Source: a bacterium
Lineage (GTDB): Bacteria > Planctomycetota > JADGBV01
NCBI GenBank assembly: GCA_023261545.1
Contig: JAHFOS010000005.1
Span: forward strand, 1 to 58,910
Length of the DNA stretch: 58,910 nucleotides
Direction of reading: 5' to 3'
Under the pieces are notes generated by a model. It was given only the letters and a program-made list of their open reading frames with translations. It made no database searches and was not told where the DNA came from. A program made the position numbers and the translations under genes. Each line of letters begins with the position of its first letter. Position 1 is the stretch's first letter. Below, one piece after another: positions 27,168 to 45,619 of this stretch.

Positions 27168-27454
27168 TTATAAAATTTTCACGCAGATCCCCCTTGGCGC
27201 ACTGGGCGATAAACTCTTGGTTTTCTAAAACAAAATGCCGGGGAAGATGAACCGCCAAGTGCGCCAAGAACGCCAAGAAGATCAGCAAATATCATGCGTT
27301 TGAGCGCCGAATCGCCCGACCCGTCGCCAAGCCCGGCACGTGCGCGCCGGCTCTGGCAGGCCTGGCTTTGGGCGACGCTGGGCTTGTATCTCGTCTTTTA
27401 CCTGCACGGGGCCGGCAGCCGCACGCTGCGGCGCCTCGTGGAGCTTTTATTCTG

Positions 27455-29437
27455 ATGGCCCTGCAGATCCTCGCTGCCCTGGAGGTCCTGGCCCTGGCGG
27501 CGCTGCTGCCGCTGCTCGCCGCCGCTCTGGGCCGGCGCCTCCTGGGGGGGCGGCCCGCGCCCGCCGAAAGCGCGGCCCTGGGCTTGGCGGCCATTTCAAT
27601 GGTTGTTTACGGGCTGGCCTGGGCCGGAAATATGAGCGCGCTCAATTTGAAACTGCTCACGCTGGCGCTGGCGATTTTGCTGTGGCGCGAAATGGCCGGC
27701 CTGCTCGCGGGCCTCATCGCGGGAGCGCGGAGGCTGTGGGCGGGGTTGGATCGACCGGAGGGCGCGTTGCCGCAGAGGACGGGACTCTCACAAGCAGGGC
27801 TCCAACAAACCGGGCACCCAATGGGGGGGCACCCGTTGGGTGCCCCCCCACAAGGGGCGCCCCTACTGCTGCGCGCGTTGCTGTTGCTGTTGGTCGGTCT
27901 TGAAATGATGCGGCTGTTCCGCTGCCTGCTGCCGGCCTTGGGCTGGGACGCCCTGGGCTATCACTTGACGCTCGCGGACGCCTACCTCACGCGCGGCGCG
28001 CTCGATCCCCCGCCCTGGTATTTCCCCGCCGACCGCCGCGTCAGCCCCGCGGGGGTGCTGCTCAAGGCGTGGCTCATGGCTTTCGACAGCGAGGGCCGCG
28101 TCGTGACCGTCATGAACGGCGCGCTGCACGCGGTGCTGATCGCAGAGATCGCCAGCCTGGCCGCGCTGTTGTTGCCCTTGCGCCTCGCCCTTCTCGTGGC
28201 CGCTGCCTACGCCGCGCTTCCCGAAGCCGCGGTGCACGCCGCTGGCGCTGGCGACGAGATGCTGTTGAGCCTCATCCTCTTGGCGGGGCTGCGGCGCGTG
28301 CTGAAGCCCGCGACTTTGCTGGTTTCAAAGCGCATGGCCCCGCTGCTTGGATTGCTGCTCGGGTTCGCCCTTGCCATCAAGATGACGACCGTCTTCTGGA
28401 TGCTGCCGCTGGTTCCCTTGCTGCTTTGGCGCCAGCGCCGCCGTCCCCTGCGAGGACTGCTTTTTCTCGCGCTGCTGGCGCTTGTGGCCGGCGGCTATCA
28501 CGGTCACAGTTACTCCCGCTACGGCGCCGTTTTTCCCTTCGAGCGGCACGCCAACCTGCTTTATTCCGGGCAACCGGGTCAGCCGCGCGTGCTGGCGGGC
28601 GAGGAGATCCGCGCCGAGCGCAAAACCCTGGGGCTTGAGCGCGATTTCAATGAAGTGGATATCCTGGACAACTGGCGCAGCCGCACCTGGAGCAATCTGC
28701 GCGCCCTGCCGCGCGTTCCCGCCGGGCCGTTCTTGCTCTGGTTGTTGCCGTTCTTTTTCCTGCGCCCCGCGTCACCGCGCTCCTGGCGGCGCGCGGCGTT
28801 GGCGGGTCTGGGTTTTGCCGCCTTTGTGCTGCTGGCCAGCGCCGCGGCCTGGCATTTCACGCCCCCGGCTTTCTTCCGTTACCACCTGCCCACCTGGGCC
28901 GTGCTCGTCGCCGCGGCCATGGTGGGCGTCGCGGGTTGGTGCCATCAACGCGGATGGGAGAGCACGCTGGTCCTTCCGCTGTCGGCCCTGCTGATGGTCG
29001 CCTTCTTCCTCGAAGGCCGGCAAATAGCGGCGCTCACCCTGGATCGGCCGGTCCTCGATCCCGCCCGTTATCGGCAGCGCTATGTGGCGGATGGCCCGTT
29101 GGCCCTGCGCTTGACGGCACTGAAAAAGCCTGGCGAGGCGGTCTTTTACATCGGCCCAGCCTCTTTCCTGTTTCGCGGACCGCGCGTTTTTCCCGCTCAA
29201 CTCGGCAACGAGGCGGGCTGGCGCCGTATCTCCGATATCGAGAGCTTTTTGGTACAAGAACATATCCAGTGGTGGGTCACGAGCGCCGCCTGTTCCAAGC
29301 TGGATCCAGCCTACGAAGCTCTCACGGACTATTTTTTGCAACACGGGTGGTTGAGCCTGGTCGAGAAATTGCCCGCGGGCCAGATTTTTCGCGTGCTTCC
29401 GAGCGCCTCTCCGACTGCACGGCCCGCACCGCTTTAA
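27455..29437 (+). CDS. Polytopic membrane protein, putative GT-C (ArnT/PMT-like) glycosyltransferase
   Basis: Many TM helices, WDALGYHL loop motif, ALAIK, FFRYHLP, and a C-terminal periplasmic domain. Confidence 0.65.
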   Translation: MALQILAALEVLALAALLPLLAAALGRRLLGGRPAPAESAALGLAAISMVVYGLAWAGNMSALNLKLLTLALAILLWREMAGLLAGLIAGARRLWAGLDRPEGALPQRTGLSQAGLQQTGHPMGGHPLGAPPQGAPLLLRALLLLLVGLEMMRLFRCLLPALGWDALGYHLTLADAYLTRGALDPPPWYFPADRRVSPAGVLLKAWLMAFDSEGRVVTVMNGALHAVLIAEIASLAALLLPLRLALLVAAAYAALPEAAVHAAGAGDEMLLSLILLAGLRRVLKPATLLVSKRMAPLLGLLLGFALAIKMTTVFWMLPLVPLLLWRQRRRPLRGLLFLALLALVAGGYHGHSYSRYGAVFPFERHANLLYSGQPGQPRVLAGEEIRAERKTLGLERDFNEVDILDNWRSRTWSNLRALPRVPAGPFLLWLLPFFFLRPASPRSWRRAALAGLGFAAFVLLASAAAWHFTPPAFFRYHLPTWAVLVAAAMVGVAGWCHQRGWESTLVLPLSALLMVAFFLEGRQIAALTLDRPVLDPARYRQRYVADGPLALRLTALKKPGEAVFYIGPASFLFRGPRVFPAQLGNEAGWRRISDIESFLVQEHIQWWVTSAACSKLDPAYEALTDYFLQHGWLSLVEKLPAGQIFRVLPSASPTARPAPL

Positions 29438-29468
29438 CGAAAGTGAATGCGGATCGCGAGAACAGCTC

Positions 29469-29546
29469 TTGACTTTGAATAATTTGGGAATATAATACCA
29501 AAGTTGTGAATAAATTTTCCCAAAATATTCTCGGAATTAGTTTTCC
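29469..29546 (+). promoter_or_regulatory. Sigma70 promoter with three imperfect palindromic operator-like boxes
   Basis: TTGACT(29469)-N16-TATAAT(29491); boxes GGGAATATAATACC, GTGAATAAATTTTCCC, GGAATTAGTTTTCC. Confidence 0.7.
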
Positions 29547-29555
29547 AAGAATTTG

Positions 29556-30377
29556 ATGGCTAAGGTGAATCAGGCTCTGGCCGCTGCCGCCACCAGGTTA
29601 TTGCGACCGCTGGTGCGCATTCTGCTCAGGAACGGCGTGCCCTACGGCACCTTCGCCGAATGGGCCAAGCGGGTTTTCGCCGACGTGGCCACCCAGGAAT
29701 TCTCTCTGGCCTACAAGAAGCAAACAGATTCGCGCGTTTCCGTGCTGACGGGGCTCAGCCGCAAGGAAATACGTCAGCTCAGGGAAACGCCGGCGCTGGA
29801 CGACAGTCACTGGAGCGAGAAGTACAACCGCGCCGCGCGCGTGGTCAGCAGTTGGGTGCGCGACCCGTCCTTCGCCGGTGAGTCCGGCCAGCCGGCGGAC
29901 CTTCCCTTCGAGGGTGCGGGAGCGAGTTTCACCGAGCTCGTCAAGAAATACAGCGGCGACGTGCCGGCCCGCGCCATGCTCGACGAACTGCTGCGCGTGG
30001 GCACCGTGGAGCTCGTCAAGGGCGAGCGCGTGCGCCTGCTGGCGCGATCCTATGTTCCGGCGGGTGACGACAGCGAGAAGGTGGTCATGATGGGCGAGGA
30101 CACGGCGGACCTGCTCGCCACCTTCGACCACAATTTCACGCATCCTCCGGAAAAGAGCTTCCTGCAACTCAAGGTCGTTTACGACAACCTGCCCGCCGGG
30201 GTGCTCCACAAGTTGCGCGGGCTTTCCAAGGAGAAGGCCCAGCTTTTCCTGGAGGACCTCGATCAGTGGCTTTCCTCCCACGACCGCGACACCAACCCGG
30301 CTTCGGAAGGGCCGGGTCGCCAGCGCGCCGGCGTGGCCGTCTATTACTTTGAAGAAGACCTGGAGGGCGGGAAATGA
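29556..30377 (+). CDS. DUF6502 family protein (putative transcriptional regulator)
   Basis: LLRPLVRILLRNGV, TDSRVSVLTGLSRKEI (HTH-like), LPFEG..SFTELVKKYSGDVPARAMLDEL, RAGVAVYYFEE. Confidence 0.9.
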   Translation: MAKVNQALAAAATRLLRPLVRILLRNGVPYGTFAEWAKRVFADVATQEFSLAYKKQTDSRVSVLTGLSRKEIRQLRETPALDDSHWSEKYNRAARVVSSWVRDPSFAGESGQPADLPFEGAGASFTELVKKYSGDVPARAMLDELLRVGTVELVKGERVRLLARSYVPAGDDSEKVVMMGEDTADLLATFDHNFTHPPEKSFLQLKVVYDNLPAGVLHKLRGLSKEKAQLFLEDLDQWLSSHDRDTNPASEGPGRQRAGVAVYYFEEDLEGGK

Positions 30378-32578
30378 TCGCGCGCGCACACTTCTCCAGT
30401 TGCCTTCCTCTGGGTCTGCTGCTCGCCGCATGGCTGCTGGCCCTTGGCTGCGGGGGCGGCGGCGGGGTCAACCTCGCCGCGGGGGGCATTCGCGGCACGG
30501 GTGGCGGCACCATCGTGACCGGCGTCATTGACGACGGGGCGCTGCTTTCCAAGGCCCGGATGGCGGCGGCGGACAGCTTGCAGGTCCAGGCGCGCGACGT
30601 CGCCACCGGCAGCCTCTACTCCGCCACCGTGCAGGGCCGCGGCTACACGCTCATCGTTCCCTTTGGGGCCGAGGTCGAAATTACGGCCCGCAACGGCGGC
30701 ACGGTGCTGCTTTCGCGCACGCTGGACGGCGACAAGACGGCGCTGCCTGCCATCACGGCGGACATCAACGCCGTCACCCATGCGCGCGCGCGCATGGCCC
30801 TCAAGGTGATGGAGGGCGGAAGCGCCCTGAAGGCCGCTCACGAGGCCGCCGATTTCGAGCTGTACGGCCGCACCGGAGTGCCCGAGGCCGATCTCAAACT
30901 CGCGGCCCTGGTCGCGGCCAACCCCACGCTTGCCGCGCGCGTGGCGGTGCACCAGCACCTGGCCGGCCAGGTTTTGAGTGGCGAGGTGGCCGAGCTGCTG
31001 CGCTTGTTCACGGAGGCCTTTTCGCGCACCTCGTCCGCCAAAGCCCGCGAGGCCTTCGCTGCCGCGGCGAATGGGCTTTCGAGCCCCGCCCTGGCGCGCA
31101 CCTTCGCCTCCGCCCTGGAGGCGGTGGAGAACTCCGGGAAAGTAGGCGCCGCGGCCTTGGCGGGGCTGCGCGCGGAGTGCACGAACACCCTGGTGCGGAC
31201 GGCCTTCATCGAGGCGGAGGAGAACCCCTACTTCCTTGCCAGCGCGGGAGGGACCTTGGCCGCTGCCCCCGGCGTGACGCTGCTCGTCACCCACGCGGCG
31301 GCCAGCACCCGGGATATCCTGGGGATTTCCAGCACGACGGGCACGCTCAACCCCGCGCCGGCCGGGGCCTACGATGCCGCAGGCGACGGCGGGCGCACGC
31401 TGCGCTTCACGCCGGCCCTGGCCGATGTCGGCGGCACCTTCACCTGGACGCTCTCGGCCCAGGGCGGCAACGGGCGCACGGCCACGGACCTCCTGCGCAT
31501 CCCGGTGCGCGCGCTTGAACTCAAGAGCGGCGCGCGCCGCAAAATCGGCGTATCATCGGCCAACACCGGCAGTTACCGGCCCCTGCTAGGGCCGGTTTCC
31601 TCCGGAAGCAGCTTCTACCTGCTCGCGCGCTATTCGGCCAATTTTCACCGCATCGAGGGCTACAAAATAGCGGACTTCAGGAGCGGCGAGGGGGACAGCG
31701 CGGTCCCCTTTACGAGCTACAATCTGCCGGTCACCATCGGCGGCGTGCGCGACTTCATCATCCACCAGGGCGTGGGCTACGTCGCCACCACGGACGCCGG
31801 CGTGCTGGGCTACGACCTCGCGGGGGATGCCGCTGCCGGGCCGAAATATGCCGCGCCTTCCATGGACGTGCACAGCCTGGCCGTGGCGGGCGGCCGCCTC
31901 TATGGGCTCAATACCGCGAGTTCCGCCGTCCTGCGCGCCGGGCTCGACCTCACTTTCCCCACCGCCCTTGTTGGAGCGGGCAGCCCCGGCGAAAAGGCCG
32001 CGGCGCTGCGCGCGGGTGATCTGGCCGGCCAGGGAGGGATCTTGCTCCTGGCCTCGGGCAACGCGCTCGCTTTCTACGACACCGCCAGCGCGTCCTTCCT
32101 GCCCGATTACAATTCATCCGCGTCCTTCGCTTTCGCCGCCGACAACAGCGGGCTCGATGACTCCGCCCTTTACATCCTCGGAAGTACGACGGCCACGCGC
32201 CTCAACCTCGCGGCTCCGACCTGGACGGCGAGCACGCTGGCTGGGATTTCCTGGAGCTCGGAAGGCGGAGCCTTCGCGGTCCACGCCGGCCACGCCTATG
32301 TCCTCGAAGGCAACTCCACGGCGGCCGCCTACAGCCTGCGCGCGACAACCCAGCGCACCCCGGCCTTCCAGGCCACTCCCACGCCCGTGTTTTACGCCAA
32401 TAATGGCGCCTTGCTGCCCCTGGTGGTCGCTGAATCCGGAGGCATCGAAGCCGGAAAAAGCGGCGCCTGGCTACTGGCCCCCGGCCAGTACAGCGCCGGC
32501 GGCAGCATTGACTCCCTGGTCGCCGCCCAGGACGGCACATGGTACATCCGCACCACCGTGGCGCAGCCCATTCCCTAG
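30374..32578 (+). CDS. Lipoprotein with an Ig-like and a C-terminal beta-propeller-like region
   Basis: Lipobox LALG-C followed by GGGGG and GGIRGTG (a motif typical of genes after DUF6502); translationally coupled to DUF6502. Confidence 0.75.
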   Translation: MIARAHFSSCLPLGLLLAAWLLALGCGGGGGVNLAAGGIRGTGGGTIVTGVIDDGALLSKARMAAADSLQVQARDVATGSLYSATVQGRGYTLIVPFGAEVEITARNGGTVLLSRTLDGDKTALPAITADINAVTHARARMALKVMEGGSALKAAHEAADFELYGRTGVPEADLKLAALVAANPTLAARVAVHQHLAGQVLSGEVAELLRLFTEAFSRTSSAKAREAFAAAANGLSSPALARTFASALEAVENSGKVGAAALAGLRAECTNTLVRTAFIEAEENPYFLASAGGTLAAAPGVTLLVTHAAASTRDILGISSTTGTLNPAPAGAYDAAGDGGRTLRFTPALADVGGTFTWTLSAQGGNGRTATDLLRIPVRALELKSGARRKIGVSSANTGSYRPLLGPVSSGSSFYLLARYSANFHRIEGYKIADFRSGEGDSAVPFTSYNLPVTIGGVRDFIIHQGVGYVATTDAGVLGYDLAGDAAAGPKYAAPSMDVHSLAVAGGRLYGLNTASSAVLRAGLDLTFPTALVGAGSPGEKAAALRAGDLAGQGGILLLASGNALAFYDTASASFLPDYNSSASFAFAADNSGLDDSALYILGSTTATRLNLAAPTWTASTLAGISWSSEGGAFAVHAGHAYVLEGNSTAAAYSLRATTQRTPAFQATPTPVFYANNGALLPLVVAESGGIEAGKSGAWLLAPGQYSAGGSIDSLVAAQDGTWYIRTTVAQPIP

Positions 32579-32604
32579 CTTGTCGCAGAAGAGGAAACGC
32601 TAAC

Positions 32605-35600
32605 ATGCCCCAGCCCATGCCTGAAATCCCGCACCTCCAGAGGTTTTTTCGTCTTTTTTCGGCGTTGCTGTTGGCCGTGGTCGTCTCGATGACGGCTGTC
32701 TTTCCCGCTGAACAACATCTGCTGATCTACTACCCCCCCTACCAGAGCCAGGCTCAGAAGATCAAGGATTTCCTCAACAAACGCGGCATCGAAACCCTGC
32801 TCATGCCGGCCCCCTACGGCTTCAGCAGCGACCGCGAGTACCCTGCGGATACCGCGCCCTCCTGGAAAACCTTCTGGGAAAGCCTGGTGGGCACCGGCGA
32901 GAGCGCCAGCGCCATGCTCATGGTGGATCCGCTCATGATCTTGAACGGGCAGTATCTCAATGGCGTCACCCCGGCGACCTTTGTATGGGACGGCACCCGC
33001 AACATGTATCCTCATGGCGCCTTGGTTGACGGGCGCTTGGCAACCATCGCCCATGTCACGATCCTGGGCAATCCCTTGGAAATTCCGCCGAGCTCCACCA
33101 TCCTGCGGGGCAACATCCGCCAGCCGACGGACCACTACTACTCGCTCAAGGGGACGCTGTCCGACTTCGTCCCGGATCACACCGTGAGCCGCATTCCCAT
33201 CACGGTGACGGACTCGACCAACCAGATGGACCTCTTCAATATCGCCGGCACCACGCCTTCCTTCAGCACCATCAACACCCGGGGCTGGGCGACGTTCAGG
33301 AGCTCCAATGCCGGCGAACTCAATGGCGTCAGCATCTACCTGAACCTTCCCAACCATAAGGATCCCAATCCCACCTCGCTGCTCGTCAATGTGGCCGACA
33401 ACACCAGCATCAAGAGTCCGACGACGCTGGACGGCAACGTCAAGCTCATCGTCACCCGCACGGTGAGCGGTTACGCCCTGCCCAGCATTGCCACCCACCC
33501 CCACATCGTGCGCAAGATTCCCTCCGACAAGAACGCCAAGGGCGCTTTCGCCTACTATGCGAACAGCGGCAATTTCGTGGAGGCCCTGCACATCAAGTCC
33601 ATCGGCAACTTCACCTACAGCGTCACCGTCGGCAACGAGGTGTTGCTGGGCACCGTCAAGGCGGTAGCGGCCGGCGCCGGCCAGATCTCGGCCGATCCCA
33701 CCAGCATCAGCACCTCTTTGGCCACCGCCTTGGCGACCTCCGGAAATTACCTGCTCATATCCCAGGGTGGCGCCGACAAAGGGGACAATTACGTCATGGT
33801 CAATTTCACGTCGCCCGCCTTCACGGTGGATTCCAGCATCGGCGACACCCCCGACAACGATCTGAAGGACCAGACCCTTGAAGTCTGGAGATACACCGCC
33901 GCCGATACCTCCATCAAGGGCACCGGCACCAAGAACGCTAGCGACGGCGGCATCGCGTCCGTGAAATACATCAGCCCCGGCACCTTGAGCGGCACGCCCA
34001 CGACCGGCACGGCCTACGATCTGCGCGGTGCGGCCACGCGCATCGTGGACAAGGTCGTCGCCTGGGGGGAGTACGTGTGGTCGAACTCATCCGACGCTAC
34101 CTCGGTGCTGGCCTCGGGCCTCGGCCAGGGCGGCAAGCCCGACTTCTTCAACAGCGCCCTGGTGGCTATTCCCATCAACGACTACCGCTGGGACTACTAC
34201 TATGAGCACATCGCCCTCGATCTCGTGAACTACTACGATAGCGCGCTTTCCGCCAGCCCCTCGGTTTTCAACGGTTTCCGGGTGGTCAAGGTCTTCCCCA
34301 GCAACGACAACTACAGCGGTAACGCCACGCACCCGCGCATCCGGCCCGGCATCAACCGCCTCAGCAACAACGTGGCGGCGCGCATCACCTCCATCGCCCA
34401 GGGCACCGATCAGGGCAGTTATGGCGGCATCATTCAACTGGTGCAAGTGAACCAGGGTGAGGCGGCCATCCGCCTCACCGGCAACTCGGCGGAGAAATTC
34501 CAGGTGCTGATCCAGGAAAGCACCCCCGGCAGCAGCGCGCTCAGCAACCCCCTGCCCGCGGAATACACCGTGGCCACAGCGGGCAATCCCACCAAAATAG
34601 CTTTCGCGGGCTATGGCGGCAGTTTCATCGTGAACGGCACCACCACGGTGCGCGTGCATGTACGCGATGCCAACGACCAGTTGGTCACGAGTTCGAGCAA
34701 CAGCCTCACCTTCCAACTCGCCAGCAACACCGCCACCATCTCCGGCATCAACGTCGGCGGGGCGGTGACGGACGGAGCCCTCAACACCCAGCGTGTGACC
34801 TTCCCGGCCGCGAATGGTGTCGCCGAGATCAAAATCCTGGATACTTCCGCCGAGAATTTCCTGGTGGTGGTGACCAATGCCGGCAACGTTCTCGCCAATC
34901 CCCAGCAACTCACGGTGAACTCCGTGGCCTCGTCGGTGGGCACGCCCATCCGCATCGAGGTGAGCACCAGCAGCAGCTTTTCCGGCGTCGGCAGCGTCGC
35001 GGAGTTGCGCGTCCAGATTCAGGACTCCAACGGCCTGCGACTCAACACCGACAACACCACCATCGTCAGGTTCGAGCTCAATCCCTTCCCTTCCACCGAC
35101 ATGATAGCCCAGACCTCGGGCAAGGGCATCTTCTACATGACCGACAATTTCGAGAGCATTTTCGGCAACACCACGAACTGGAACAGCAGCCATTTCCAGA
35201 ATACCGGCGTCACGCCCGAATTGCCCCTCGTCATCGCCGGCGGTGAGAACGGCTTCGACCTCACCTATGACCCTGAGAACATCGAGCGCTGGATCGGCTA
35301 CGGCACGGCGTCGCTTTCCTATCGCCCCAGCGGCAATACCTTTGCCGGCAGCATCGGCTATATCGGCTATCATTCCCACAGCCTCTATATCAAGCGCCCC
35401 CCCATTGACACCACCTTCGAGTGGGGATATCCCATCCTCACCAATCCGGTGGATGTTCACTGGGACAAAGGCGCCTTCAAGCCCGAGCTCATGGCCCGGC
35501 ATATCCTGGCCCGGGAGGCCGTGCGCGAATACTCCTCGGCCAGCCAGCCCACCATCGGCACCCTGTGGAAGGAATCCATCACCGGCTACCTCGACGATCT

Positions 35601-38600
35601 GATGACGAAATATCCCTCCGTTTTCAAGACGAGATCGGATGCCGCCAAGTACGCCATCGCGGACCTCGAGCGCTGGGGAGCCATCGGGCTTTCCGCCCAG
35701 GAACTTCCCGTCCACAAGTACTGGCCGCACAAATTCAATTCCGCGACCAGCGACTTCGTGGCCGATGAGGTGCCTGTGCCCTCGGTCACCGTCACCTCCG
35801 CCAGCCTGCGGTCCACGGACACTTACGATCGCTATGAGATACCGGTGGTGGAGATCCCAGACTCGGCCACCAGCGGGCAAAACGTGACCTTCTCCATCAC
35901 CAACGCGTCCTCCTATCCCAGCGGCACGGATTTCCGCGTCACGCTGGTGGCTTTGCCGTTGGTCAATCCCAGGGATTCGGTTTTCGAACTCCACGGCCGC
36001 ATCTCCCAGCTCGACTTCAGCGCTCCGCCCCAGCAGGGGGAGGTTTCTTACACTCTTTTCGCGAACTCGGGCAATGCCAGCTCCTTCAGCCTCCCCTTCT
36101 ATCCTACCTGGGGGCGCAGTTCGGGGACCACGGGCACGCTGCAGCGCGGGCCCTCGCTCTACACGCTGCGCGTGGAGGCCCTGGAGCCGGCCCACAGCGG
36201 CGAACTCAGCACGGCCCAGAAGACGGCGCAATACACCAAGGAAACCCGGCTCTATTTCCGTGTGGTCAACAAGTTCACGCTCTACGACGAGACCATGTTC
36301 CTGCTGGTCAACAATACGGATCACGACCCCTACCAGTTGCGCTACTTCTGGAACAACATGGTTCCCTCCACCAGCATCCGCTACTACGCGGATGCCCTCG
36401 ACAACTACCAGTACACGCGCGGCACGCTTTCCCTGAGTTCGGCGGCCAGCGGCGGTTCGGCTACTTTCAGCGCCGACGTCAACAGCAATACCTATTGGGA
36501 TCAGCGCCTGGCGGCCGGGGACAAGATCCGCGCCCTCGATCTCAGCACCAACCTTTTCAGCCCTTGGCATCGCATCACTTCGGTAGGGACGGCTTCCATC
36601 GCGGTGAGCGACGGCGACAGCACCTTCTCCAGCACCACCAATTATAAGAAGACGCTGTACGTCTCCCAGCGCGCCTATACGGAGGGCTACGCGCTGCTCA
36701 CCTACACCTCCGCGGCGGGCACCAACAGCGGCAAGCCCACGGTGTCCACCACGGGGGTCAAGCTCATCCTGCCTGGCAGCGACTACCTCGGTTTCAGCGA
36801 TGTAGTGAAGACGGGAGATTATTTCAAGCTCCTTGACGAGGGGACTTATTCTGAAATCACGGCTTTGTCTGTAGCCGGAAACGTTGCCTCCATCACCCTG
36901 GCCAGCGAATATCCCCTGGACTCCCTCTACCACTACCACGCCCAGCCGACCGGGCAATTCTGGGGCGAGGGCAGCATGCTGGCCAGCACGGCTTCCGGGA
37001 ATATTTTGGGTTCCTACGCCATCTACCCCTCCACGGGCAGCGGTTCGAGCAAGCGGCCGCTCTATCTCTATCAGACATGGCATGTCCACAACTTCAACAC
37101 CGCCAACACCACCGGTCAGGGCCTGTACGGCGATGTCACCCAGGGTATCCTTGACAGCTTCGCCAAGGGCGACAGCACCAGCCGGCGTCACAAGGCCGTG
37201 GTCTGGGCTCACGAATCCGGATATGAGGTCAACGACTGGAACATCCTGGTGGGGCTTACGGGCCGGGAGCTCAACCGCAATTTTTCCACTGGGGACACCA
37301 CCGGCGATGCCGGCATTATCCTTGAAGGCAATTTGCCCATCCATTATTTCTCGGTGAAGGACAAGGCGCGCATCGCCTCGTTCCTGAGCCTTGGAGGCAG
37401 ACTCTTGACAGGCGGGCAATGGGTGGACGCCGGAAACACTACCATGGACGACTCTTTCTACGACACCTTGGGCGTGGCCATCCAGCATTCTGGGAATGGC
37501 ACGGGCATCATCCAAATCACGGATTCTGGATTGCGCGCCCTCAAGAAGGTGCCGGGAGATCCCATCACAGATAAATTCGAAAACAACCTCGATATCCAGG
37601 GCGGTGTTTCGCCCAATACCACAAAGCAGGTGGATAACGAGGCCAGCCTATGCGTCTATAACCCCAGTCCGCTCTTCATTCGCAAAGGCCAGGGTCTGCC
37701 CTTCGTTTACTATGGAGGCACGGGCTCCGCGGGCGGTGAGACCATCGCCGGCGTGCGCGCCAGCGGCGGGCCCAACGAACGGCCCTATGGCACGGTTTTT
37801 GCGGGTTTCGATTTCGGGACCCTGAGCCCCTCGGGAGCGCGCAGTATTTACAAACCGCTCAGCGATTCCCTTGAAGAAGGCCGGCGCCTGCTGCTCAAGC
37901 AGTCTCTGGACTGGCTGCGCGATCCCTCGCGCACCTCCGAAAGCCAGATCCTCAAAATAATCTATCACGCCAAGCTGGCCGACGGCACCCTTTACGCCAT
38001 TACGCTCTCCACGGACAACACCATCACCGTGAACACGGCGGTGCACACCGCGGCCGGCATCACGGGTGGCGTGGGGCCCAACAGTGATCTCATCTTCAGC
38101 GCTCAAGGTGGCCAGATCTACGATCTCACGAGTTATTCCTGGGTCGTGGCCAGCACTGGCACGGGCGGGGCCAAGCAGCCCACCCTCACCGTGGACAGCA
38201 ACTACCCCGGCAATTCGCGCATCGTCTTTCGCACCGGCGACCTCACCACGGGCAGCGATACCATCCGCCTCACCGGCCCGGACGGCAGCGTGCGCAACCT
38301 GGTGATTGCGCCTCAGAAGTTTCCCCTCTCTTTCACTGTCCAAAACAGCGGCAACGCGGTGGTGGGCGGAAAGATCTTGAACACGGCGGGTGCCACCGTA
38401 AAAATCGTGGCTTTGGGTGGAGACGGCCTCGGATCTTACATTTACTCCGTCATTCCAGGGGACCCCATCTTCAGCAACAGCACGCTGATCTCGGCGGGCA
38501 GCGAATCCGTCACCTACACGTTGCCCAACGCGGTGATCACCGACACCGTGAGCGTGACCTTCCTCGTGGAGTCCGGATCCCAATCCGCCACCGCCACCCT

Positions 38601-39795
38601 CAAGATTCTGGCGCCGGTGAACTTCACGGCCAGCTCGGACACCTTCACCGTGGTCGGGGGGGCGCCGGCGCACCTCGTGGCCGCGGGCGGGGATGGCAGC
38701 TACACCTTTTCCACCACGGATTCCGGAATGGTCAAACTCACCGACGATACAGACAAAAAAGGCACCAGCGTGGCGGGGTTGACGACTGCCTCGATCAGCA
38801 TTGATCCGAACAGCCCCAGCGTGTCCACCATCCAGGTGCAGTCTTTCGGTTCCGTCAATTACGGGTATGTCAAGGTTTACTCGGCGCCCGTCCTGCGCTA
38901 TCGTTTGGATTCGGCCTCCGGTTGGACCAACATTGCCGACGGCGACAAGGTTCCGCTGCCCACGGGAGGCCAGCTTGAACTCAATGTCGCCGGCGGGCTG
39001 ACCACGGCCACCTGGCGCGTCCTCGACGAGACCTTATCCACGACCAACGTGCTGCGCCGTGTTTCCGACAGCAGCGAATACGCCAAAGGGGGGAGTTTCA
39101 CGGCCAGCTACGCGACGACCGCTCAGGCGCTGTTGCTCACGGGCACTACGGGCAGCGGCAACTCGGTAACGCTCTCCATCAACAGCGGTGGTTCCACCAT
39201 CAGCCGCACCATCAACCTCGTCTCCTCCATCAACGTCACGCCCACGCCCACGGCCATGAAGTTCAGCACCAGCAAGCAGTTCACCGTGGCCACCGGCACG
39301 GCACCCTACACTTGGACTTTTGTGCCTTCGAATTTGGGCACGGGCTTCGCCACAAGCTCCACGGGCAACGCTGTCACCACCCTCAGCGGCAGCGGAACCT
39401 CGGTGTACTTCTTCTCGGGTTCTACCACTGAGCAGGGCACGATTTCGGTCACGGACACGAATGGCAATCTGGGAACGGCTTTTGTCTATGTCAACACCGA
39501 CGGCACCATCCCGGCGACTAGCGGCACGGCACCCCCCACAACCACGACGACCGGCACCACGGGGGCTGCGGCGGGTGTGACCACGCTTCAGGGCGGGGCA
39601 CCGCCAGCGCCGGCCATCGCAGGAGGTGGTTGCTTCATGTCGGGCACCACTTTTATGGTGCGCGCTGGCGGTGATTACGACGGAGACGTCACAGTTGGAT
39701 CATCCCCCGAGTTTTTCGTGCCGGGCGCGGGAACCCCCATGAGCACGGACAGCCAGCCCGCGAAGGCGGCGCACTCCACCCCGAAGGGGAGATAG
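32605..39795 (+). CDS. Giant (~2396 aa) secreted Ser/Thr/Gly-rich surface protein: split gingipain(C25)-like scaffold, Ig-like domains, GATase-like domain, GGGCF motif near the C-terminus
   Basis: GAGGA RBS, signal peptide, uninterrupted 7.2-kb ORF; motifs listed in findings. Confidence 0.8.
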   Translation: MPQPMPEIPHLQRFFRLFSALLLAVVVSMTAVFPAEQHLLIYYPPYQSQAQKIKDFLNKRGIETLLMPAPYGFSSDREYPADTAPSWKTFWESLVGTGESASAMLMVDPLMILNGQYLNGVTPATFVWDGTRNMYPHGALVDGRLATIAHVTILGNPLEIPPSSTILRGNIRQPTDHYYSLKGTLSDFVPDHTVSRIPITVTDSTNQMDLFNIAGTTPSFSTINTRGWATFRSSNAGELNGVSIYLNLPNHKDPNPTSLLVNVADNTSIKSPTTLDGNVKLIVTRTVSGYALPSIATHPHIVRKIPSDKNAKGAFAYYANSGNFVEALHIKSIGNFTYSVTVGNEVLLGTVKAVAAGAGQISADPTSISTSLATALATSGNYLLISQGGADKGDNYVMVNFTSPAFTVDSSIGDTPDNDLKDQTLEVWRYTAADTSIKGTGTKNASDGGIASVKYISPGTLSGTPTTGTAYDLRGAATRIVDKVVAWGEYVWSNSSDATSVLASGLGQGGKPDFFNSALVAIPINDYRWDYYYEHIALDLVNYYDSALSASPSVFNGFRVVKVFPSNDNYSGNATHPRIRPGINRLSNNVAARITSIAQGTDQGSYGGIIQLVQVNQGEAAIRLTGNSAEKFQVLIQESTPGSSALSNPLPAEYTVATAGNPTKIAFAGYGGSFIVNGTTTVRVHVRDANDQLVTSSSNSLTFQLASNTATISGINVGGAVTDGALNTQRVTFPAANGVAEIKILDTSAENFLVVVTNAGNVLANPQQLTVNSVASSVGTPIRIEVSTSSSFSGVGSVAELRVQIQDSNGLRLNTDNTTIVRFELNPFPSTDMIAQTSGKGIFYMTDNFESIFGNTTNWNSSHFQNTGVTPELPLVIAGGENGFDLTYDPENIERWIGYGTASLSYRPSGNTFAGSIGYIGYHSHSLYIKRPPIDTTFEWGYPILTNPVDVHWDKGAFKPELMARHILAREAVREYSSASQPTIGTLWKESITGYLDDLMTKYPSVFKTRSDAAKYAIADLERWGAIGLSAQELPVHKYWPHKFNSATSDFVADEVPVPSVTVTSASLRSTDTYDRYEIPVVEIPDSATSGQNVTFSITNASSYPSGTDFRVTLVALPLVNPRDSVFELHGRISQLDFSAPPQQGEVSYTLFANSGNASSFSLPFYPTWGRSSGTTGTLQRGPSLYTLRVEALEPAHSGELSTAQKTAQYTKETRLYFRVVNKFTLYDETMFLLVNNTDHDPYQLRYFWNNMVPSTSIRYYADALDNYQYTRGTLSLSSAASGGSATFSADVNSNTYWDQRLAAGDKIRALDLSTNLFSPWHRITSVGTASIAVSDGDSTFSSTTNYKKTLYVSQRAYTEGYALLTYTSAAGTNSGKPTVSTTGVKLILPGSDYLGFSDVVKTGDYFKLLDEGTYSEITALSVAGNVASITLASEYPLDSLYHYHAQPTGQFWGEGSMLASTASGNILGSYAIYPSTGSGSSKRPLYLYQTWHVHNFNTANTTGQGLYGDVTQGILDSFAKGDSTSRRHKAVVWAHESGYEVNDWNILVGLTGRELNRNFSTGDTTGDAGIILEGNLPIHYFSVKDKARIASFLSLGGRLLTGGQWVDAGNTTMDDSFYDTLGVAIQHSGNGTGIIQITDSGLRALKKVPGDPITDKFENNLDIQGGVSPNTTKQVDNEASLCVYNPSPLFIRKGQGLPFVYYGGTGSAGGETIAGVRASGGPNERPYGTVFAGFDFGTLSPSGARSIYKPLSDSLEEGRRLLLKQSLDWLRDPSRTSESQILKIIYHAKLADGTLYAITLSTDNTITVNTAVHTAAGITGGVGPNSDLIFSAQGGQIYDLTSYSWVVASTGTGGAKQPTLTVDSNYPGNSRIVFRTGDLTTGSDTIRLTGPDGSVRNLVIAPQKFPLSFTVQNSGNAVVGGKILNTAGATVKIVALGGDGLGSYIYSVIPGDPIFSNSTLISAGSESVTYTLPNAVITDTVSVTFLVESGSQSATATLKILAPVNFTASSDTFTVVGGAPAHLVAAGGDGSYTFSTTDSGMVKLTDDTDKKGTSVAGLTTASISIDPNSPSVSTIQVQSFGSVNYGYVKVYSAPVLRYRLDSASGWTNIADGDKVPLPTGGQLELNVAGGLTTATWRVLDETLSTTNVLRRVSDSSEYAKGGSFTASYATTAQALLLTGTTGSGNSVTLSINSGGSTISRTINLVSSINVTPTPTAMKFSTSKQFTVATGTAPYTWTFVPSNLGTGFATSSTGNAVTTLSGSGTSVYFFSGSTTEQGTISVTDTNGNLGTAFVYVNTDGTIPATSGTAPPTTTTTGTTGAAAGVTTLQGGAPPAPAIAGGGCFMSGTTFMVRAGGDYDGDVTVGSSPEFFVPGAGTPMSTDSQPAKAAHSTPKGR

Positions 39796-40823
39796 CCGCC
39801 GTAGCCCAGCAGTGGCATTTCGAAGACGCGGAAGCGCTGCACCCAGGGGACGTGATACACCCAGCGCGCCAGGCTGTGCAGGTTCCACATCTCCCAGAAG
39901 AAGCCGCAGGCCAGGGCCGCCAGGGCGGCGGACCAGAGCCCGCTGAAGTCCCCGCGCGGGCTCGCGCTCAGCACGTGCTCTTCGCCGACCAGAGCTTGTA
40001 GTCCTATAAAAAGCAGTCCGGGCGCGAGCCAAAGCATCGGGTAGAACTCACGTGGGTGAGCCGGCAAAACGAAAAGGCCGAGCGCTGAGAATAGAACGGC
40101 GAAAAAAGCGAGCGGTCGGAACGGAATTTTAAAAGCGGGAGCGTGCCCGGAAAACGCTGACTTGAAGCCCGGGCAGGACAAGACCAGTTCCTGCATGGCG
40201 ACGAAGGCTGGCAAGACCGTGGAAAAGGCCAGCGTGCAGTGCAAAGCGTACTCCCCGGCGCTGAACTGCTCCACGTTCTCATAGCTCCAGTTCCCGGCGA
40301 AGCGGTTCAAAAACTCGAACATCCACCACAGCAGCGCGCTCAGGGGAAAGAGCGCCGCGTACCAGGCGGGGTGGTGCGTGAGCGGGCAGCTTCCACTGGC
40401 GCGCACCAGCCGGGCGTTGAGGCACAGGATGAAGCTCAGCCATAGCGGCGTGAAGGTGTATTTCTGGAATCCGGCAAAGCACGGGAAGCGCGTCCAGGCG
40501 ATGAGCCAGAAGAAGCCGAGTCCGAGAAAGGAAGGTGCCGCCCAGGCCGGCCAGGGATGCGCGGCGATCGGCCACCAGCGCACGATGCCTCGGGCGCGAT
40601 ACGTCCAGATCAGGAAAGGGGATATCGGGGCGAGGATCAGCGCCAGGATGACACCGGCTCCGAACCACGACCACGATTCCATCCCCGAAGGCGCCGGCCG
40701 CGGGGGAAAGACGAGGTAGGGGCCGAGCTCCAGGCCCGCGACGGCCACGCCGGCCACAGGCAGGGCCAACACCAAACCCAGCACGCCGCTGATAACCAGC
40801 AAACGCAGTAATAATTTAGCCAT
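39675..40823 (-). CDS. Conserved hypothetical integral membrane protein
   Basis: Multiple TMs; WWMFEFLNRF..NWSY and FWEMWN..W.Y.VP...FEMPLLGYGGYLPFG motifs. Confidence 0.75.
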   Translation of the reverse strand: MAKLLLRLLVISGVLGLVLALPVAGVAVAGLELGPYLVFPPRPAPSGMESWSWFGAGVILALILAPISPFLIWTYRARGIVRWWPIAAHPWPAWAAPSFLGLGFFWLIAWTRFPCFAGFQKYTFTPLWLSFILCLNARLVRASGSCPLTHHPAWYAALFPLSALLWWMFEFLNRFAGNWSYENVEQFSAGEYALHCTLAFSTVLPAFVAMQELVLSCPGFKSAFSGHAPAFKIPFRPLAFFAVLFSALGLFVLPAHPREFYPMLWLAPGLLFIGLQALVGEEHVLSASPRGDFSGLWSAALAALACGFFWEMWNLHSLARWVYHVPWVQRFRVFEMPLLGYGGYLPFGVECAAFAGWLSVLMGVPAPGTKNSGDDPTVTSPS

Positions 40824-43212: not shown

Positions 43213-44379
43213 CTACTGCGCCGGCAAGTCGCAAAAATTCTTTTTCAGGATTCCCTGGAGGGGAAAACTTTCGAGGACTTTGACGATGCGCCGGCTCGCC
43301 CCGCCCGTGCCGTAAGGGTTACGCACGCCGGGGAGTTCGCGGCGAAACTCCGGGCTGTAGAGGCGGTCCAGAGCCTTCAGGATGGCCGCGCGCTGCGGCG
43401 CGCAGTTGATGACGCTTTCGGCCTGGAGGCGGCCGCGCTGGCGCTCGCCGATGTTGATGGTGCCGATGTGGAAAGCGGGCGCTTCGATAAGCCCGCTTGA
43501 GGAGTTGCCCACCACGCCGTCCACGTGCTTCAAGGCCGAGAGGTACTTGAGCTGCCCGAGCGAGACGAAGGCGGCGGCGCGCCCGGCATGGCGCGCGACG
43601 AAGTCGTCAATTCCGCGGATCAGCGCGCGCCCACCCACGTCGGCATTGGGCTTGGTGAAAATGACGCGGAGGCCGGGCCGGGCCTCCAAGGCGGCGAGGA
43701 GTTCCGCGAATTGCGCGTCCGCCGTGGCCTCCTCAAGCGTGACGGGATGGAAGGTGACGAGCAGGTTGCGTTCCCCGAACTTGAAGCCCAGTTCCGCCTC
43801 CAGTTTCGCGCGCGACAGCAGTTTCAGTTTGCGCACGTTGTCGAGCCCGAGCCCGCCGACGTTGAAAACGCGCCGGGGATCCTCTCCGAGCTGGATCACG
43901 CGCCGGCGGTACTTTTCGGCGGCGGTGAAATGCAGGTGCGACATCTTGGTGAGGCAGTGGCGGATGGCCTCGTCGTAGGCGCCTTCCGAGGACTCCCCGC
44001 CGTGGAGGTGCGCCACGGGGATGCGCGCCACCAGGGCCGCCGCCGCGGCGGCCAGAAGCTCGAAGCGGTCCCCGAGGACGATGAGGATGTGGGGTTGAAG
44101 CTCCGCCAAGGCGTCGGCGAATCCGATGAGGCCGAGCCCCATGGATTTGGCGATGCCCGCCGGCGTGTCCGAGGAGAGCAGCATTTCCACCTTCTTATGG
44201 ATGTGGAAGCCATCGGCTTCGATGGCGCGCCAGGTGAGCCCGAACTCCGGCGCAAGGTGCATGCCGGTGGCGACGACCTGGAGCTCGAGCTTGGCGGAGG
44301 CCCGAATTTCCTTCATCAGCCAGTGGAGCAGGCCATACTCGGCCCGCGATCCGGTGACGACGCAGCAGCGGCGCTTCAC
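43213..44379 (-). CDS. neuC: Hydrolysing UDP/GDP-N-acetylglucosamine 2-epimerase (NeuC/LegG)
   Basis: VTGSRAEYGLL, TGMHL, LGDRFE, HLHGGE, TFHPVT, GNSSSG. Confidence 0.93.
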   Translation of the reverse strand: MKRRCCVVTGSRAEYGLLHWLMKEIRASAKLELQVVATGMHLAPEFGLTWRAIEADGFHIHKKVEMLLSSDTPAGIAKSMGLGLIGFADALAELQPHILIVLGDRFELLAAAAAALVARIPVAHLHGGESSEGAYDEAIRHCLTKMSHLHFTAAEKYRRRVIQLGEDPRRVFNVGGLGLDNVRKLKLLSRAKLEAELGFKFGERNLLVTFHPVTLEEATADAQFAELLAALEARPGLRVIFTKPNADVGGRALIRGIDDFVARHAGRAAAFVSLGQLKYLSALKHVDGVVGNSSSGLIEAPAFHIGTINIGERQRGRLQAESVINCAPQRAAILKALDRLYSPEFRRELPGVRNPYGTGGASRRIVKVLESFPLQGILKKNFCDLPAQ

Positions 44380-45377: not shown

Positions 45378-45619
45378 GGGGATTTTCCTGCCCGCGGGCG
45401 GTGGAGGCGCGGGGAAAGGCCCGGCAGAGCCCACCGAACCAGCATTTTACCCATGCCGGGTCTCCGGCAATCCTGGCGAAGCTTTCCCGACCTCACCCAG
45501 GTCGGTGCGCGGGCCTCTGGCCCGCAGAGGATGGTTTGAAATGCCGCCATCGCAGGGCTTTCATCCCGCTTGTACTCGCTGGACTGAGCTTAAATTTCCC
45601 CCTCTGAGAGGAGTCTGCC

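Follow-up and report, generated by a model that had tools for sequence, protein, structure and literature searches.

A secreted giant protein with a split, non-catalytic gingipain-like (C25) head and a C-terminal cysteine tag

The window analysed here, a stretch of 58,910 nt, carries on its forward strand an ORF at 32539..39795 (2418 codons, from the ORF list and its translation). Met23, at 32605, is the likely start, which gives a protein of 2396 aa, identical to the database protein P0002; residues are counted from this Met, and an alternative upstream ATG lies at 32539. The protein comes from an uncultured groundwater bacterium. When gene neighbourhoods were compared, none was found to be conserved. 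The gene comprises the following features:

32605..39795, forward strand: whole gene, encoding a secreted giant protein
32605..32709, forward strand: N-terminal, Sec-type signal peptide, residues 1-35 (read from the sequence)
32710..33219, forward strand: first part of the C25-like N-terminal subdomain, residues 36-205 (hhalign against 20 C25 domains)
33220..34020, forward strand: insertion 1, an all-beta module of ~267 aa, residues 206-472 (model and alignment)
34021..34374, forward strand: C25-like middle segment, residues 473-590 (hhalign and structural alignment to RgpB)
34375..35094, forward strand: insertion 2, Ig-like beta-sandwich repeats of ~240 aa, residues 591-830 (alignment and phmmer)
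35095..35724, forward strand: C25-like C-terminal (caspase-like) subdomain, residues 831-1040 (hhalign and structure)
35902..37974, forward strand: most conserved region of the family, residues 1100-1790 (invariant columns cluster here)
37975..39498, forward strand: C-terminal stalk-like region, residues 1791-2298 (conserved along the family alignment)
39499..39621, forward strand: Thr/Gly/Ala/Pro-rich linker, residues 2299-2339 (read from the sequence)
39622..39639, forward strand: C-terminal tag G-G-G-C-F-M, with Cys2343 (codon 39631-39633)
39640..39795, forward strand: 51-residue extension past the tag, running into the convergent ORF 39675..40823 (reverse strand)

The predicted signal peptide has a basic n-region and a hydrophobic stretch (LFSALLLAVVVSMTAV), followed by VFPA/E as the putative cleavage site, and in the AlphaFold2 model a helix (residues 9-31) occupies this region. 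Eleven full-length homologues of 2072-2536 aa share 29-38% identity over the whole length. Besides the source genome, the family was present in one of 300 sampled genomes of the phylum, and only ~10 cluster representatives were found among 1.84 billion proteins. The family alignment used below holds 15 sequences.

The original prediction held that nine motifs occur here in the order of C25 proteases, but pulled apart by insertions. Each motif was found once, at the nucleotide claimed for it ±1 base:

33052, forward strand: HVTILGNPLEIPP (residue 150)
33124, forward strand: PTDHYYSL (residue 174)
33163, forward strand: DFVPDHTVSRIP (residue 187)
34039, forward strand: RIVDKVVAW (residue 479)
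35119, forward strand: GKGIFYMTDN (residue 839)
35221, forward strand: LPLVIAGGENGFD (residue 873)
35347, forward strand: GSIGYIG (residue 915)
35551, forward strand: TIGTLW (residue 983)
35674, forward strand: WGAIG (residue 1024)

Two inter-motif gaps measure 280 aa and 351 aa, and the inserted domains account for ~267 aa of the first and ~240 aa of the second; sizes of ~270 aa and ~200 aa had been proposed. The three non-inserted pieces were aligned profile to profile (hhalign) with 20 true C25 domains, all from genomes of this phylum. Their hits were colinear, at template positions 7-152 (score 58.5), 140-215 (21.4) and 210-365 (34.2); the best of 20 column-shuffled templates reached 18.2, 15.3 and 18.6, respectively, and the reversed template 12.6 to 14.7. 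The two inserted pieces found no match in these domains (E 0.49 and 0.36 for insertions 1 and 2, respectively). The N-terminal subdomain (residues 36-205) was matched with a probability of 94.6% and E 6.9e-8 over 141 columns, and carries the motifs H-x-I-I-Y-Y, T-I-L-G-N-P-L-E-I-P-P-S, T-D-x-Y-Y-S-L and V-P-D-x-x-V-S-R-I-P. The middle segment (E 0.016) scored above all 21 controls, is colinear with its neighbours and falls within the structural alignment to RgpB; its features are the helix RIVDKVVAW, the strand ALVAI, R-W-D-Y-x-x-E-H and F-N-G-F-x-V-x-K-V-F-x-S-N-D. For the C-terminal subdomain the local E was 4.7e-4 and the global E 3.7e-6. Judged at the sequence level, the order of the motifs is thus beyond chance.

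The search with Pfam PF01364 (cut-off 23 bits), which had been suggested as a check, succeeded in part: two of the 15 family members exceeded the cut-off, P0009 (38 bits) and P0014 (31.2 bits), both in the N-terminal subdomain region, but the giant protein itself had no Pfam match, PF01364 included, and no PDB sequence match either. This lack of matches speaks for a chance arrangement of short motifs on an unrelated fold, a reading that is scarcely credible with two homologues above the Pfam cut-off. A chance resemblance to C25 is refuted by a Z of 32-33 to RgpB over ~326 residues in two structure searches, together with colinear profile matches above all controls.

The AlphaFold2 model of residues 1-1100, built from the 15-sequence alignment, was of moderate confidence (pLDDT 65.3, pTM 0.66), with pLDDT <50 at 313 of the 1100 residues, most of the Ig insertion included. 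RgpB (1cvr, 4ief) provided the sole Foldseek matches with a probability of 1.00. VIA-align over the Foldseek list gave Z 32.8 for RgpB (4ief_D; 326 residues, rmsd 3.2 Å), 31.9 for 1cvr and 27.6 for Kgp (4rbm), and the best fold outside clan CD, the clan of caspase-type proteases, reached Z 8.5. A Foldseek-independent search of 48,161 chains produced the same ranking, followed by other clan CD enzymes (separase, Z 14.4; PorU, 14.1; then CHAT, legumain, metacaspase and caspase), with RgpB at Z 32.7-32.8 over both structure searches. The gingipain fold was therefore recovered as predicted, and so was its splitting, i.e., the alignment to RgpB spans residues 35..1038, yet only ~326 residues are aligned. 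Since the alignment to mature RgpB begins at model residue 34-36, directly after the signal peptide, the N-terminal prodomain is absent.

As had been assumed for C25 proteases, the His of the G-H-G motif was present in 19 of the 20 true C25 domains and the Cys in all 20. Residues 1-1100 of the giant protein contain no Cys. The dyad would fall on T846-D847-N848 (35140-35148) and G879-G880 (35239-35244), a mapping based on hhalign, in which the local probability of the C-terminal subdomain is only 32.7%, and on secondary structure. In the alignment, the column of the catalytic Cys corresponds to the second G of IAGG (G880), and the G-H-G loop lies in a gap adjoining MTDN. Strands 842-845 and 875-878, as modelled, would stop just ahead of these positions, in agreement with the available text of PMC4357240, which places the two dyad residues of clan CD, as a rule, at the C-terminal ends of neighbouring strands. 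The window was reproduced without a difference over 34652-35279, a stretch that includes both dead positions, by contigs of one study that stem from three sequencing runs. Across the family, the residue in the Cys-equivalent column is G in 10 members, D in 2 and otherwise Q, A or S, and the His-equivalent columns hold T, L, N, V and S, or D, E, G and N, so that neither His nor Cys occupies a dyad column in any member. The proposed loss of the dyad, with MTDN and IAGG at the equivalent positions, is thereby supported: T-D-N and G-G stand in place of the dyad, which no relative has.

The C25-like domain could still be a peptidase or transpeptidase with a non-canonical site, e.g., one in which His38 or His1037 is paired with Ser, Thr or Asp as the nucleophile. 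These His residues are conserved (12 of 12 and 15 of 15 rows, respectively), and D176, S553, E534 and D545 are invariant within the span. We regard this as very improbable, because no Cys is conserved, every clan CD nucleophile known to us is a Cys, and the residues at the canonical positions differ freely from one relative to another (G, Q, D, A and S at the Cys column), as a site released from catalytic selection would be expected to do. In addition, the missing prodomain is, according to the available text of PMC4357240, what secreted C25 proteases use for latency. By these results, the head of the protein, its first ~1,040 residues, is homologous to the gingipain catalytic domain (MEROPS C25, clan CD) and keeps both subdomains, but is non-catalytic.

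Surface loops of this domain accommodate two inserted beta modules: the all-beta one follows the N-terminal subdomain, and the Ig-like repeats precede the strand that would carry the His. Insertion 1 was present in all 13 alignment rows spanning the site and had a pLDDT mostly of 84-93 over residues 280-440, and its fold matches, to EF-Tu domain 2-type barrels and to tail-tip proteins of phages, were no better than moderate (Z 5.5-8.5; 66-84 residues). Insertion 2 was present in 6 of the 14 rows that span its site, with a pLDDT <50 over residues 635-781. Its segment was found by phmmer in many unrelated multidomain proteins, whose matching stretches gave Ig_GEX2_N, Big_1 or GH2_C5-type matches, mostly below cut-off; in the giant protein, the Big_1 match (E 0.025, 15.1 bits) was under the cut-off of 34.9 and Invasin_D3 was also sub-threshold. 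Only insertion 2 corresponds to the Ig domains that had been predicted in the loops; insertion 1 is a different all-beta module.

Downstream of the head, residues 1100-1790 carry the motifs VNNTDHDPY, YYEDALDNYQY, QRAYT, GDFFK-LDER, SYAIYPP, YLYQTWNVHN, HKAVVWAN, GGRL-TGGQ, GFDF and DWLRDP. This region had no Pfam, NCBIfam or PDB sequence match, was unrelated by hhalign to C25 or to the N-terminal part (E 0.19-0.54), and yielded in the ESM Atlas only a weak lead, to DUF5057 (0.78). Since conservation is best here and not in the C25-like head, the main activity of the protein may reside in this middle region. The protein might then be an enzyme after all, with a catalytic region of an undescribed family, e.g., acting on polymers, and the dead head with its beta insertions solely as a substrate-binding or targeting accessory. 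Invariant and near-invariant columns are indeed far denser here than in the head, with many Asp, His, Arg, Tyr and Trp, and the other cargo of the same C-terminal tag consists mostly of hydrolases. We nevertheless consider an enzyme unlikely, as no match in these databases allows a catalytic family to be named, and conservation alone does not demonstrate catalysis. The stalk-like region that follows consists of repeated G-G-D/x-G-x-G-S-Y and T-A-P-Y-T-W type segments, and has no Pfam match.

A new observation is that the C-terminal tag recurs in the source genome on about twenty further secreted proteins, large hydrolases and adhesins. The pattern GG(G)C[FL][LFI] was found in all 11 full-length homologues, with the Cys 4-6 residues from the end in 10 of them. 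In the source genome, 18 ORFs carry the tag (0.94 expected), and 20 occurrences of its DNA pattern compare with 2 in the control; in the sole other genome having the family the counts were 13 and 0. The carriers, many of which have signal peptides, include proteins with GH2, GH42, GH123, SASA, GDSL, LamG, Calx-beta, PKD, cadherin and TSP3 domains, and similar Ser/Thr/Ala-rich stretches precede the tag in other tagged proteins. Tagged ORFs mostly stop 3-8 residues after the Cys. The gene described here differs from most of them in that 51 more residues follow the tag. The extension region was covered by contigs of three runs (39488-39741, 39055-39900 and 39418-39873) with no indels, which rules out an error confined to this assembly; the reading frame also continues beyond the tag in three or more further ORFs of the genome, among them those on C15, C61, and C90 (by 10 residues).

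A structural, S-layer-like coat protein that self-assembles on the cell surface and does not bind foreign ligands would also fit the giant size, the signal peptide, the Thr-rich linker and the anchoring-type tag, and the layout resembles that of archaeal PGF-CTERM S-layer glycoproteins as presented in the available text of the Haft preprint. The rarity of the family argues against such a coat, which we find improbable. The reading that we favour, and hold to be probable, is that of a Sec-exported protein of ~2,400 residues tethered at the cell surface, in which the dead protease domain and its insertions would serve as the binding head, distal to the membrane, of an adhesin-like protein, followed by the conserved core, the repeat stalk, the linker and the G-G-G-C-hydrophobic-hydrophobic tag. 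By analogy with CAAX boxes and MYXO-CTERM, the tag Cys may be modified, probably lipidated, and the residues after it removed, which would tether the cargo to the cell envelope. The role initially proposed, a display scaffold, adhesin or S-layer component, is consistent with the signal peptide and the tag. The source genome encodes LpxB and two secretins.

With RgpB and Kgp (C25, PF01364 Peptidase_C25) the protein shares the two-subdomain alpha/beta clan CD fold (~325 residues, rmsd 3.2-3.3 Å), colinear sequence motifs and secretion. Unlike them, it has only 13-14% identity, lacks the catalytic His and Cys and the prodomain, carries two inserts of ~267 and 240 aa, escapes PF01364 and embeds the C25-like domain in 2,396 aa. 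No type IX secretion C-terminal domain was found in it, and the source genome had no match to PF01364, PF18962 or SprA, searches that were also without match in every control genome. PorU, the C25-like sortase of the type IX secretion system (6za2), likewise places a clan CD C25-like fold in a large multidomain surface protein, but its match (250 aligned residues) is much weaker than those of the gingipains. PorU keeps its catalytic Cys. No dead C25 family was found described in the literature searched. In the available texts of PMC3220528 and PMC6426788, Trypanosoma brucei metacaspase 4 and bacterial pseudo-orthocaspases are dead clan CD proteins with a substituted His/Cys dyad, thought to be non-enzymatic; these belong to family C14 and not C25, are small and without domain insertions, and the pseudo-orthocaspases have other substitutions (Tyr/Ser). 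The tag resembles a CAAX box in the two hydrophobic residues and very short tail after the Cys, but the Cys-to-end distance is variable, so that it is not a strict CAAX box, and the tagged proteins are Sec-exported, not cytosolic. Four bacterial and archaeal sorting signals are tripartite (motif, transmembrane helix and Arg cluster) in the available text of 10.1101/2023.06.07.544157. The tag described here has neither helix nor Arg cluster and matches no NCBIfam sorting model, but it shares with these signals an invariant Cys in a short Gly-rich C-terminal signature, a low-complexity linker ahead of it, and its presence on many secreted proteins per genome.

The ORF of the giant protein and the features discussed with it are the following (nucleotides of the window, or residues counted from the Met at 32605):

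27368-32578, + strand: three same-strand genes upstream of the giant gene
32539-39795, + strand: ORF of the giant protein, 2418 codons
39622-39639, + strand: C-terminal tag G-G-G-C-F-M
Residues 206-472: insertion 1, between V-S-R-I-P and the helix R-I-V-D-K-V-V-A-W
Residues 591-830: insertion 2, ahead of the strand that would bear the His

The database protein P0002 (2396 aa) begins at the second Met of this ORF (nt 32605), i.e., at the start coordinate of the original prediction, and each of the nine motifs quoted there was found once, within 1 base of the nucleotide assigned to it. By eye, the N-terminal sequence has the make-up of a Sec signal peptide, in which two Arg precede LFSALLLAVVVSMTAV and VFPA/E comes next. 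When the protein was searched whole and as six pieces against Pfam and NCBIfam, no match was obtained except for sub-threshold Ig-type hints at residues ~680-790.

It had been proposed that the head of the protein carries a gingipain fold. AlphaFold2 modelled residues 1-1100 with a pLDDT of 32.3 from the single sequence and of 65.3 (pTM 0.66) with the 15-row family alignment (A3), the latter model having a pLDDT of at least 70 at 503 of the 1100 residues. A Foldseek search of the PDB returned the gingipain RgpB (1cvr, 4ief) as the sole match with a probability of 1.00, every other row remaining at or below 0.54. Upon VIA-align superposition of the Foldseek list, RgpB 4ief_D gave a Z score of 32.8 (326 aligned residues, rmsd 3.2 Å, model residues 35..1038) and RgpB 1cvr of 31.9, followed by the gingipain Kgp with 27.6 (4rbm, 324 aa, 3.3 Å) and 27.4 (6i9a); the first entry after RgpB and Kgp reached 8.5 and was confined to residues 344-431. 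A scan of 48,161 representative chains, independent of Foldseek, left the top two unchanged and ranked next separase (Z 14.4) and PorU (Z 14.1), then the CHAT and Craspase proteases (Z 10-11), and then legumain, metacaspases, GPI transamidase and caspases (Z 5.7-7.5). Since RgpB and Kgp had the top Z scores and other clan CD enzymes came next, the head is a gingipain-type clan CD domain. The model shows the two subdomains and the clan CD topology of the C25 fold, which is described in PMC4357240 as an alpha/beta sandwich of two subdomains whose central sheet has ten strands, and the ~330 core residues of this fold are spread over ~1,000 residues of sequence. The proposed fold was thus recovered by structure. 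By sequence, phmmer of residues 1-1100 against PDB sequences gave no match, and the ESM Atlas gave no usable match for the same residues. The family profile had a sole match in the PDB, Csy1 (E 0.36), which was judged spurious.

The Pfam C25 model PF01364 gave no match to the giant protein of the window up to an E of 10, and so stayed short of its curated cut-off. Two of the 15 aligned members exceeded the cut-off of 23 bits (P0009 with 38 bits and P0014 with 31.2 bits), both over profile positions 2-133 only, which correspond to the N-terminal subdomain. Among the sampled genomes of the phylum PF01364 matched in 172 of 301, with no match in the source genome (G000) or in G005, the other genome of the family. 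We then aligned 20 true C25 domains, taken from PF01364 loci, and compared them with column ranges of A3 by hhalign.

Alignment of head segments to the true C25 domains by hhalign
N-subdomain, residues 30-235: template 7-152, probability 94.6%, E 6.9e-8, score 58.5
Middle piece, residues 471-590: template 140-215, E 0.016, score 21.4
C-subdomain, residues 831-1065: template 210-365, E 4.7e-4 (local) and 3.7e-6 (global), score 34.2

The probability for the C-subdomain was 32.7% in local and 73% in global mode. The three pieces are colinear and jointly tile the C25 domain, and their scores exceed the maxima of 20 column-shuffled templates (18.2, 15.3 and 18.6 for the N, middle and C pieces, respectively) and those of the reversed template (12.6, 13.9 and 14.7). 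Both inserted pieces and residues 1100-1790 stayed at the level of the controls when compared with C25 by hhalign (E 0.19-0.54). The idea that the C25 motifs occur in their canonical order once the insertions are removed therefore held against every control.

We then analyzed the positions of the catalytic dyad, which was proposed to be lost. In the true C25 set the His of N-Y-x-G-H-G is kept in 19 of 20 domains and the Cys of P-V-V-x-x-x-x-C-x-x-G-x-F in all 20. In the hhalign alignment the catalytic Cys falls on G880, the second G of I-A-G-G, and the G-H-G loop falls into a 7-residue gap beside M-T-D-N, so that the loop is shortened in the family; the Trp that follows this loop in C25 aligns to F849, in a column that is W in 10 of 14 rows. 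At the Cys-equivalent column the 15 rows hold G (10), D (2), Q, A and S, and no family row has a His in columns 845-848. The C25-like spans contain 0-2 Cys each, none of them at a conserved catalytic position, and the giant protein of the window has no Cys at all in residues 1-1100. Conserved His residues are found elsewhere in the head, at H38 (12/12 rows) and H1037 (15/15 rows). The contigs of three sequencing runs of one study are identical to the window across both dead positions. The catalytic His of RgpB is presumably His211. The RgpB dyad is given as His221/Cys244 in PMC4357240. According to the same review, the residues of the clan CD dyad are placed where two adjacent strands end C-terminally (PMC4357240), and with this rule agree strands 842-845 and 875-878 of the model, which stop just ahead of the dead positions. 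RgpB is also described there as having an inhibitory N-terminal prodomain of 229 residues that is removed on activation (PMC4357240); the giant protein has no prodomain, because the alignment to mature RgpB, from residue 8 of the latter on, begins at model residue 34, where the signal peptide has just ended. The homologues thus bear out the loss of the dyad, since neither His nor Cys occupies the equivalent columns in any row.

The original prediction also placed two inserted domains in the head, the second being of invasin-like Ig type. Insertion 1 is kept in 13 of the 13 rows that span it and was modelled confidently as all-beta (pLDDT 84-93 over residues 280-440); the fold matches that it gave, to EF-Tu domain 2-type barrels and to phage tail-tip proteins, were only middling (Z 5.5-8.5 over 66-84 residues). 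Insertion 2 is present in 6 of the 14 rows spanning its site. Its segment recurs in many unrelated multidomain proteins, whose stretches match Ig_GEX2_N, Big_1 or GH2_C5-type models, mostly below cut-off, and its model is weak (pLDDT < 50 over residues 635-781), with beta strands in the low-confidence part. On the giant protein itself Big_1 scored 15.1 bits (E 0.025, cut-off 34.9) and Invasin_D3 11.9 bits (E 0.34, cut-off 33), both below threshold. Given the Ig-type hits of the relatives and the poor model, an Ig-like nature of insertion 2 is reasonable and an invasin-like one is not established; the two inserted domains themselves stand. The Ig-like repeat was also seen in three other ORFs of the source genome (C192:1579-1914, C133:19579-20025 and C100:25214-25561, in open frames of 1201-1479 aa), with 29-35% identity and E values from 1.6e-7 to 1.2e-4. 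Taken together, independent evidence from fold, profile and alignment columns supports the view that the head is a split, catalytically dead C25 scaffold with domains in its loops.

The best-conserved part of the family is located outside of the head, in residues 1100-1790, which are rich in invariant Asp, His, Arg, Tyr and Trp. Sequence searches with this part matched neither a family nor a solved structure, and the ESM Atlas gave only a sub-threshold lead, DUF5057 (0.78). A second degenerate C25 domain in this region was considered and rejected, as hhalign against C25 and against the head gave E values of 0.19-0.54. The main activity of the giant protein could be located here. Downstream, a repeat-rich stretch is followed by a Thr/Gly/Ala/Pro linker and then by G-G-G-C-F-M, whose Cys codon is at 39631-39633.

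When residues 1-1100 were searched exhaustively with phmmer against 1.84 billion cluster representatives, 25 proteins were obtained at E <= 0.001. Nine of them are giants of 2072-2536 aa (P0003-P0008, P0010, P0011 and P0014) and three more (P0009, P0016 and P0018) are head-covering fragments; in the remainder only the Ig-like segment 591-839 was aligned. Metagenome contigs contributed two more copies, L008, which is near-identical to P0008, and L009. The giant homologues share 29-38% identity and can be aligned end to end. A scan of genome contigs with a further alignment (A2) matched 41 pattern stretches, with no relative among them. In 300 sampled genomes of the phylum the giant protein was found in G005 alone, the only other genome of the family, as one diverged copy. 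This homologue (L125, on G005:C572) appears as two ORFs, 7274-10627 (1117 aa) and 10645-11577 (open-ended), with a stop and 17 bases between the halves, in an assembly that is 69% complete; the gene may truly be split, may be a pseudogene or may owe the break to a sequencing error. Since the giant family has no Pfam or NCBIfam model, its members of 2,000-2,500 aa are at present unannotatable, and the family alignment now provides a basis for building such a model.

The neighbourhood of the giant gene is not conserved across the window, the metagenome loci and G005. Of the three upstream genes of the window, one encodes a polytopic membrane protein of 689 aa that Pfam does not match, another a DUF6502 protein (29553-30377, E 1.3e-83) and the last a protein of 734 aa whose signal (LALGC) is of lipoprotein type. 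This last gene begins 4 bases ahead of the DUF6502 stop, and its end lies 27 bases ahead of the start of the giant gene. None of the three adjoins the homologues elsewhere. The L008 (16707-21825) and L009 (8417-13534) homologues have methionyl-tRNA synthetase upstream and, downstream, a trio of DUF2760, Hsp70-like and Hsp70-like/DUF3731 genes that is absent from the window, and the neighbours in G005 are a TIG-domain protein and a sugar transferase. Other parts of the window showed the following. At 24014-26116 (+) lies a 700-aa, highly acidic, low-complexity ORF without a Pfam match, overlapped by a long opposite-strand ORF, in which EEDFSALL-QKSVDEMSEEERAAIA occurs twice together with several ELDALLAG units. 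Two stretches of low G+C, 10001-12000 (0.467) and 50001-52000 (0.553), in a window that is otherwise at 0.59-0.69, may be islands of foreign DNA. At 43213-45434 (-) a UDP-GlcNAc 2-epimerase and a NeuB-family synthase are encoded side by side, and this adjacency indicates synthesis of a nonulosonic (sialic-like) acid.

The C-terminal tag is a feature of the whole family, GG(G)C[FL][LFI] being present in 11 of 11 full-length homologues, with the Cys 4-6 residues from the end in 10 of them. When GGC[FLIMV][FLIMV] was counted in the last 12 residues of the 19,343 stop-bounded ORFs of at least 100 aa in the source genome, 18 tagged ORFs were found versus 0.94 expected from the frequency of the motif elsewhere (e.g., at C142:14869-14885, C276:25768-25784, C103:58463-58479 and C231:23528-23544). 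In these ORFs the tag lies 3-8 residues before the stop, after a Ser/Thr/Ala-rich linker; most are longer than 1,000 aa and many have a signal peptide at the start. Domains of surface hydrolase or adhesin type were found in 13 of the 15 tagged ORFs scanned, the other two being without a match, and include GH2, GH42, GH123, SASA esterase, GDSL lipase, LamG, Calx-beta, PKD, cadherin-like, He_PIG, TSP3 and thioredoxin-like domains. Twelve tagged tails gave no match to the NCBIfam sorting-signal (CTERM) models. At the DNA level, the back-translated pattern was compared with a reversed-pattern control.

Hits of the tag pattern and of its reversed control per genome
G000: pattern 20, reversed control 2
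G005: pattern 13, reversed control 0
G016: pattern 8, reversed control 0
G009: pattern 10, reversed control 4
G014: pattern 5, reversed control 0

The other 36 genomes had at most 6 hits each, with controls of similar size, and the tag is enriched in both genomes of the family, G000 and G005. We treated G000, G005 and G016 as tag-positive and G009 and G014 as possibly so. Several more ORFs of the source genome read past the tag, among them the window gene and ORFs on contigs C15 and C61. In the window gene 51 codons follow the tag (39640-39795) and overlap the 3′ end of a convergent ORF (39675-40823, - strand; 382 aa, no Pfam match). The contigs of the three runs agree on this extension, so that it cannot be put down to an error in this assembly alone.

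The source genome encodes LpxB and two secretins and is therefore that of a diderm with a possible outer-membrane route. In a scan with TrmD the hits came from many phyla and shared only 46-58% identity. The giant protein did not match the type IX C-terminal sorting domain (PF18962/TIGR04183) in the Pfam and NCBIfam searches. In the 91%-complete source genome PF18962 and TIGR04189 gave no match, the same searches being also blank in every control genome, and the PF01364 and SprA searches for type IX secretion were blank as in the control genomes. Because a CPBP/Rce1-like family occurs not only in all 5 genomes that were tested for it but in 11 of the 14 controls as well, it does not discriminate as a candidate for processing the tag.

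Gingipains are virulence proteases, and PorU is a secretion sortase. In the literature searched no description was found of a conserved dead C25 domain that heads giant surface proteins and has taken up whole domains in its loops, and the dead clan CD proteins found in it belong to family C14 only, with no dead C25 family; MEROPS may list automatic "non-peptidase homologues" of C25. If real, the dead head extends the pseudoenzyme concept to family C25 and provides a case from nature of a protease fold in which large insertions into loops are tolerated. A function as adhesin or display head is a reasonable inference from the export signals, the head-stalk-tag architecture and the company of the tag. 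The tag is the more novel lead of the two. We advance, as a pair of ideas that is tentative and rather doubtful in combination, that the G-G-G-C tag may be an undescribed minimal sorting signal of diderms, and that, in one conserved cargo family, the dead head may be a module dedicated to binding a ligand. The former would amount to a "periplasmic CAAX box" that lacks a transmembrane helix; lipidation or another linkage of its Cys, with trimming of the short tail that follows, would tether a set of giant adhesins and hydrolases to the cell surface. The latter may keep the protease substrate pocket in order to bind rather than cleave. The nonulosonic-acid genes may have a putative link to the glycosylation of Thr-rich linkers in the tagged proteins. 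If true, the proposed role of the tag would also tell which proteins make up the surface proteome of this uncultured groundwater lineage.

According to 10.1101/2023.06.07.544157, the Cys-containing C-terminal signals known so far are without exception tripartite and include a transmembrane helix and an Arg cluster; once the Cys has been modified, CPBP/Rce1-type proteases are proposed to cleave them. The tag shares with the MYXO-CTERM type a signature motif with an invariant Cys. In contrast to that type, however, the 18 tagged ORFs have neither a transmembrane helix nor an Arg cluster, and the longer tails (window gene, C15 and C61), on reading, do not show a hydrophobic helix followed by an Arg cluster. 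The tag rather resembles a loose version of a CAAX box that is carried by exported proteins.
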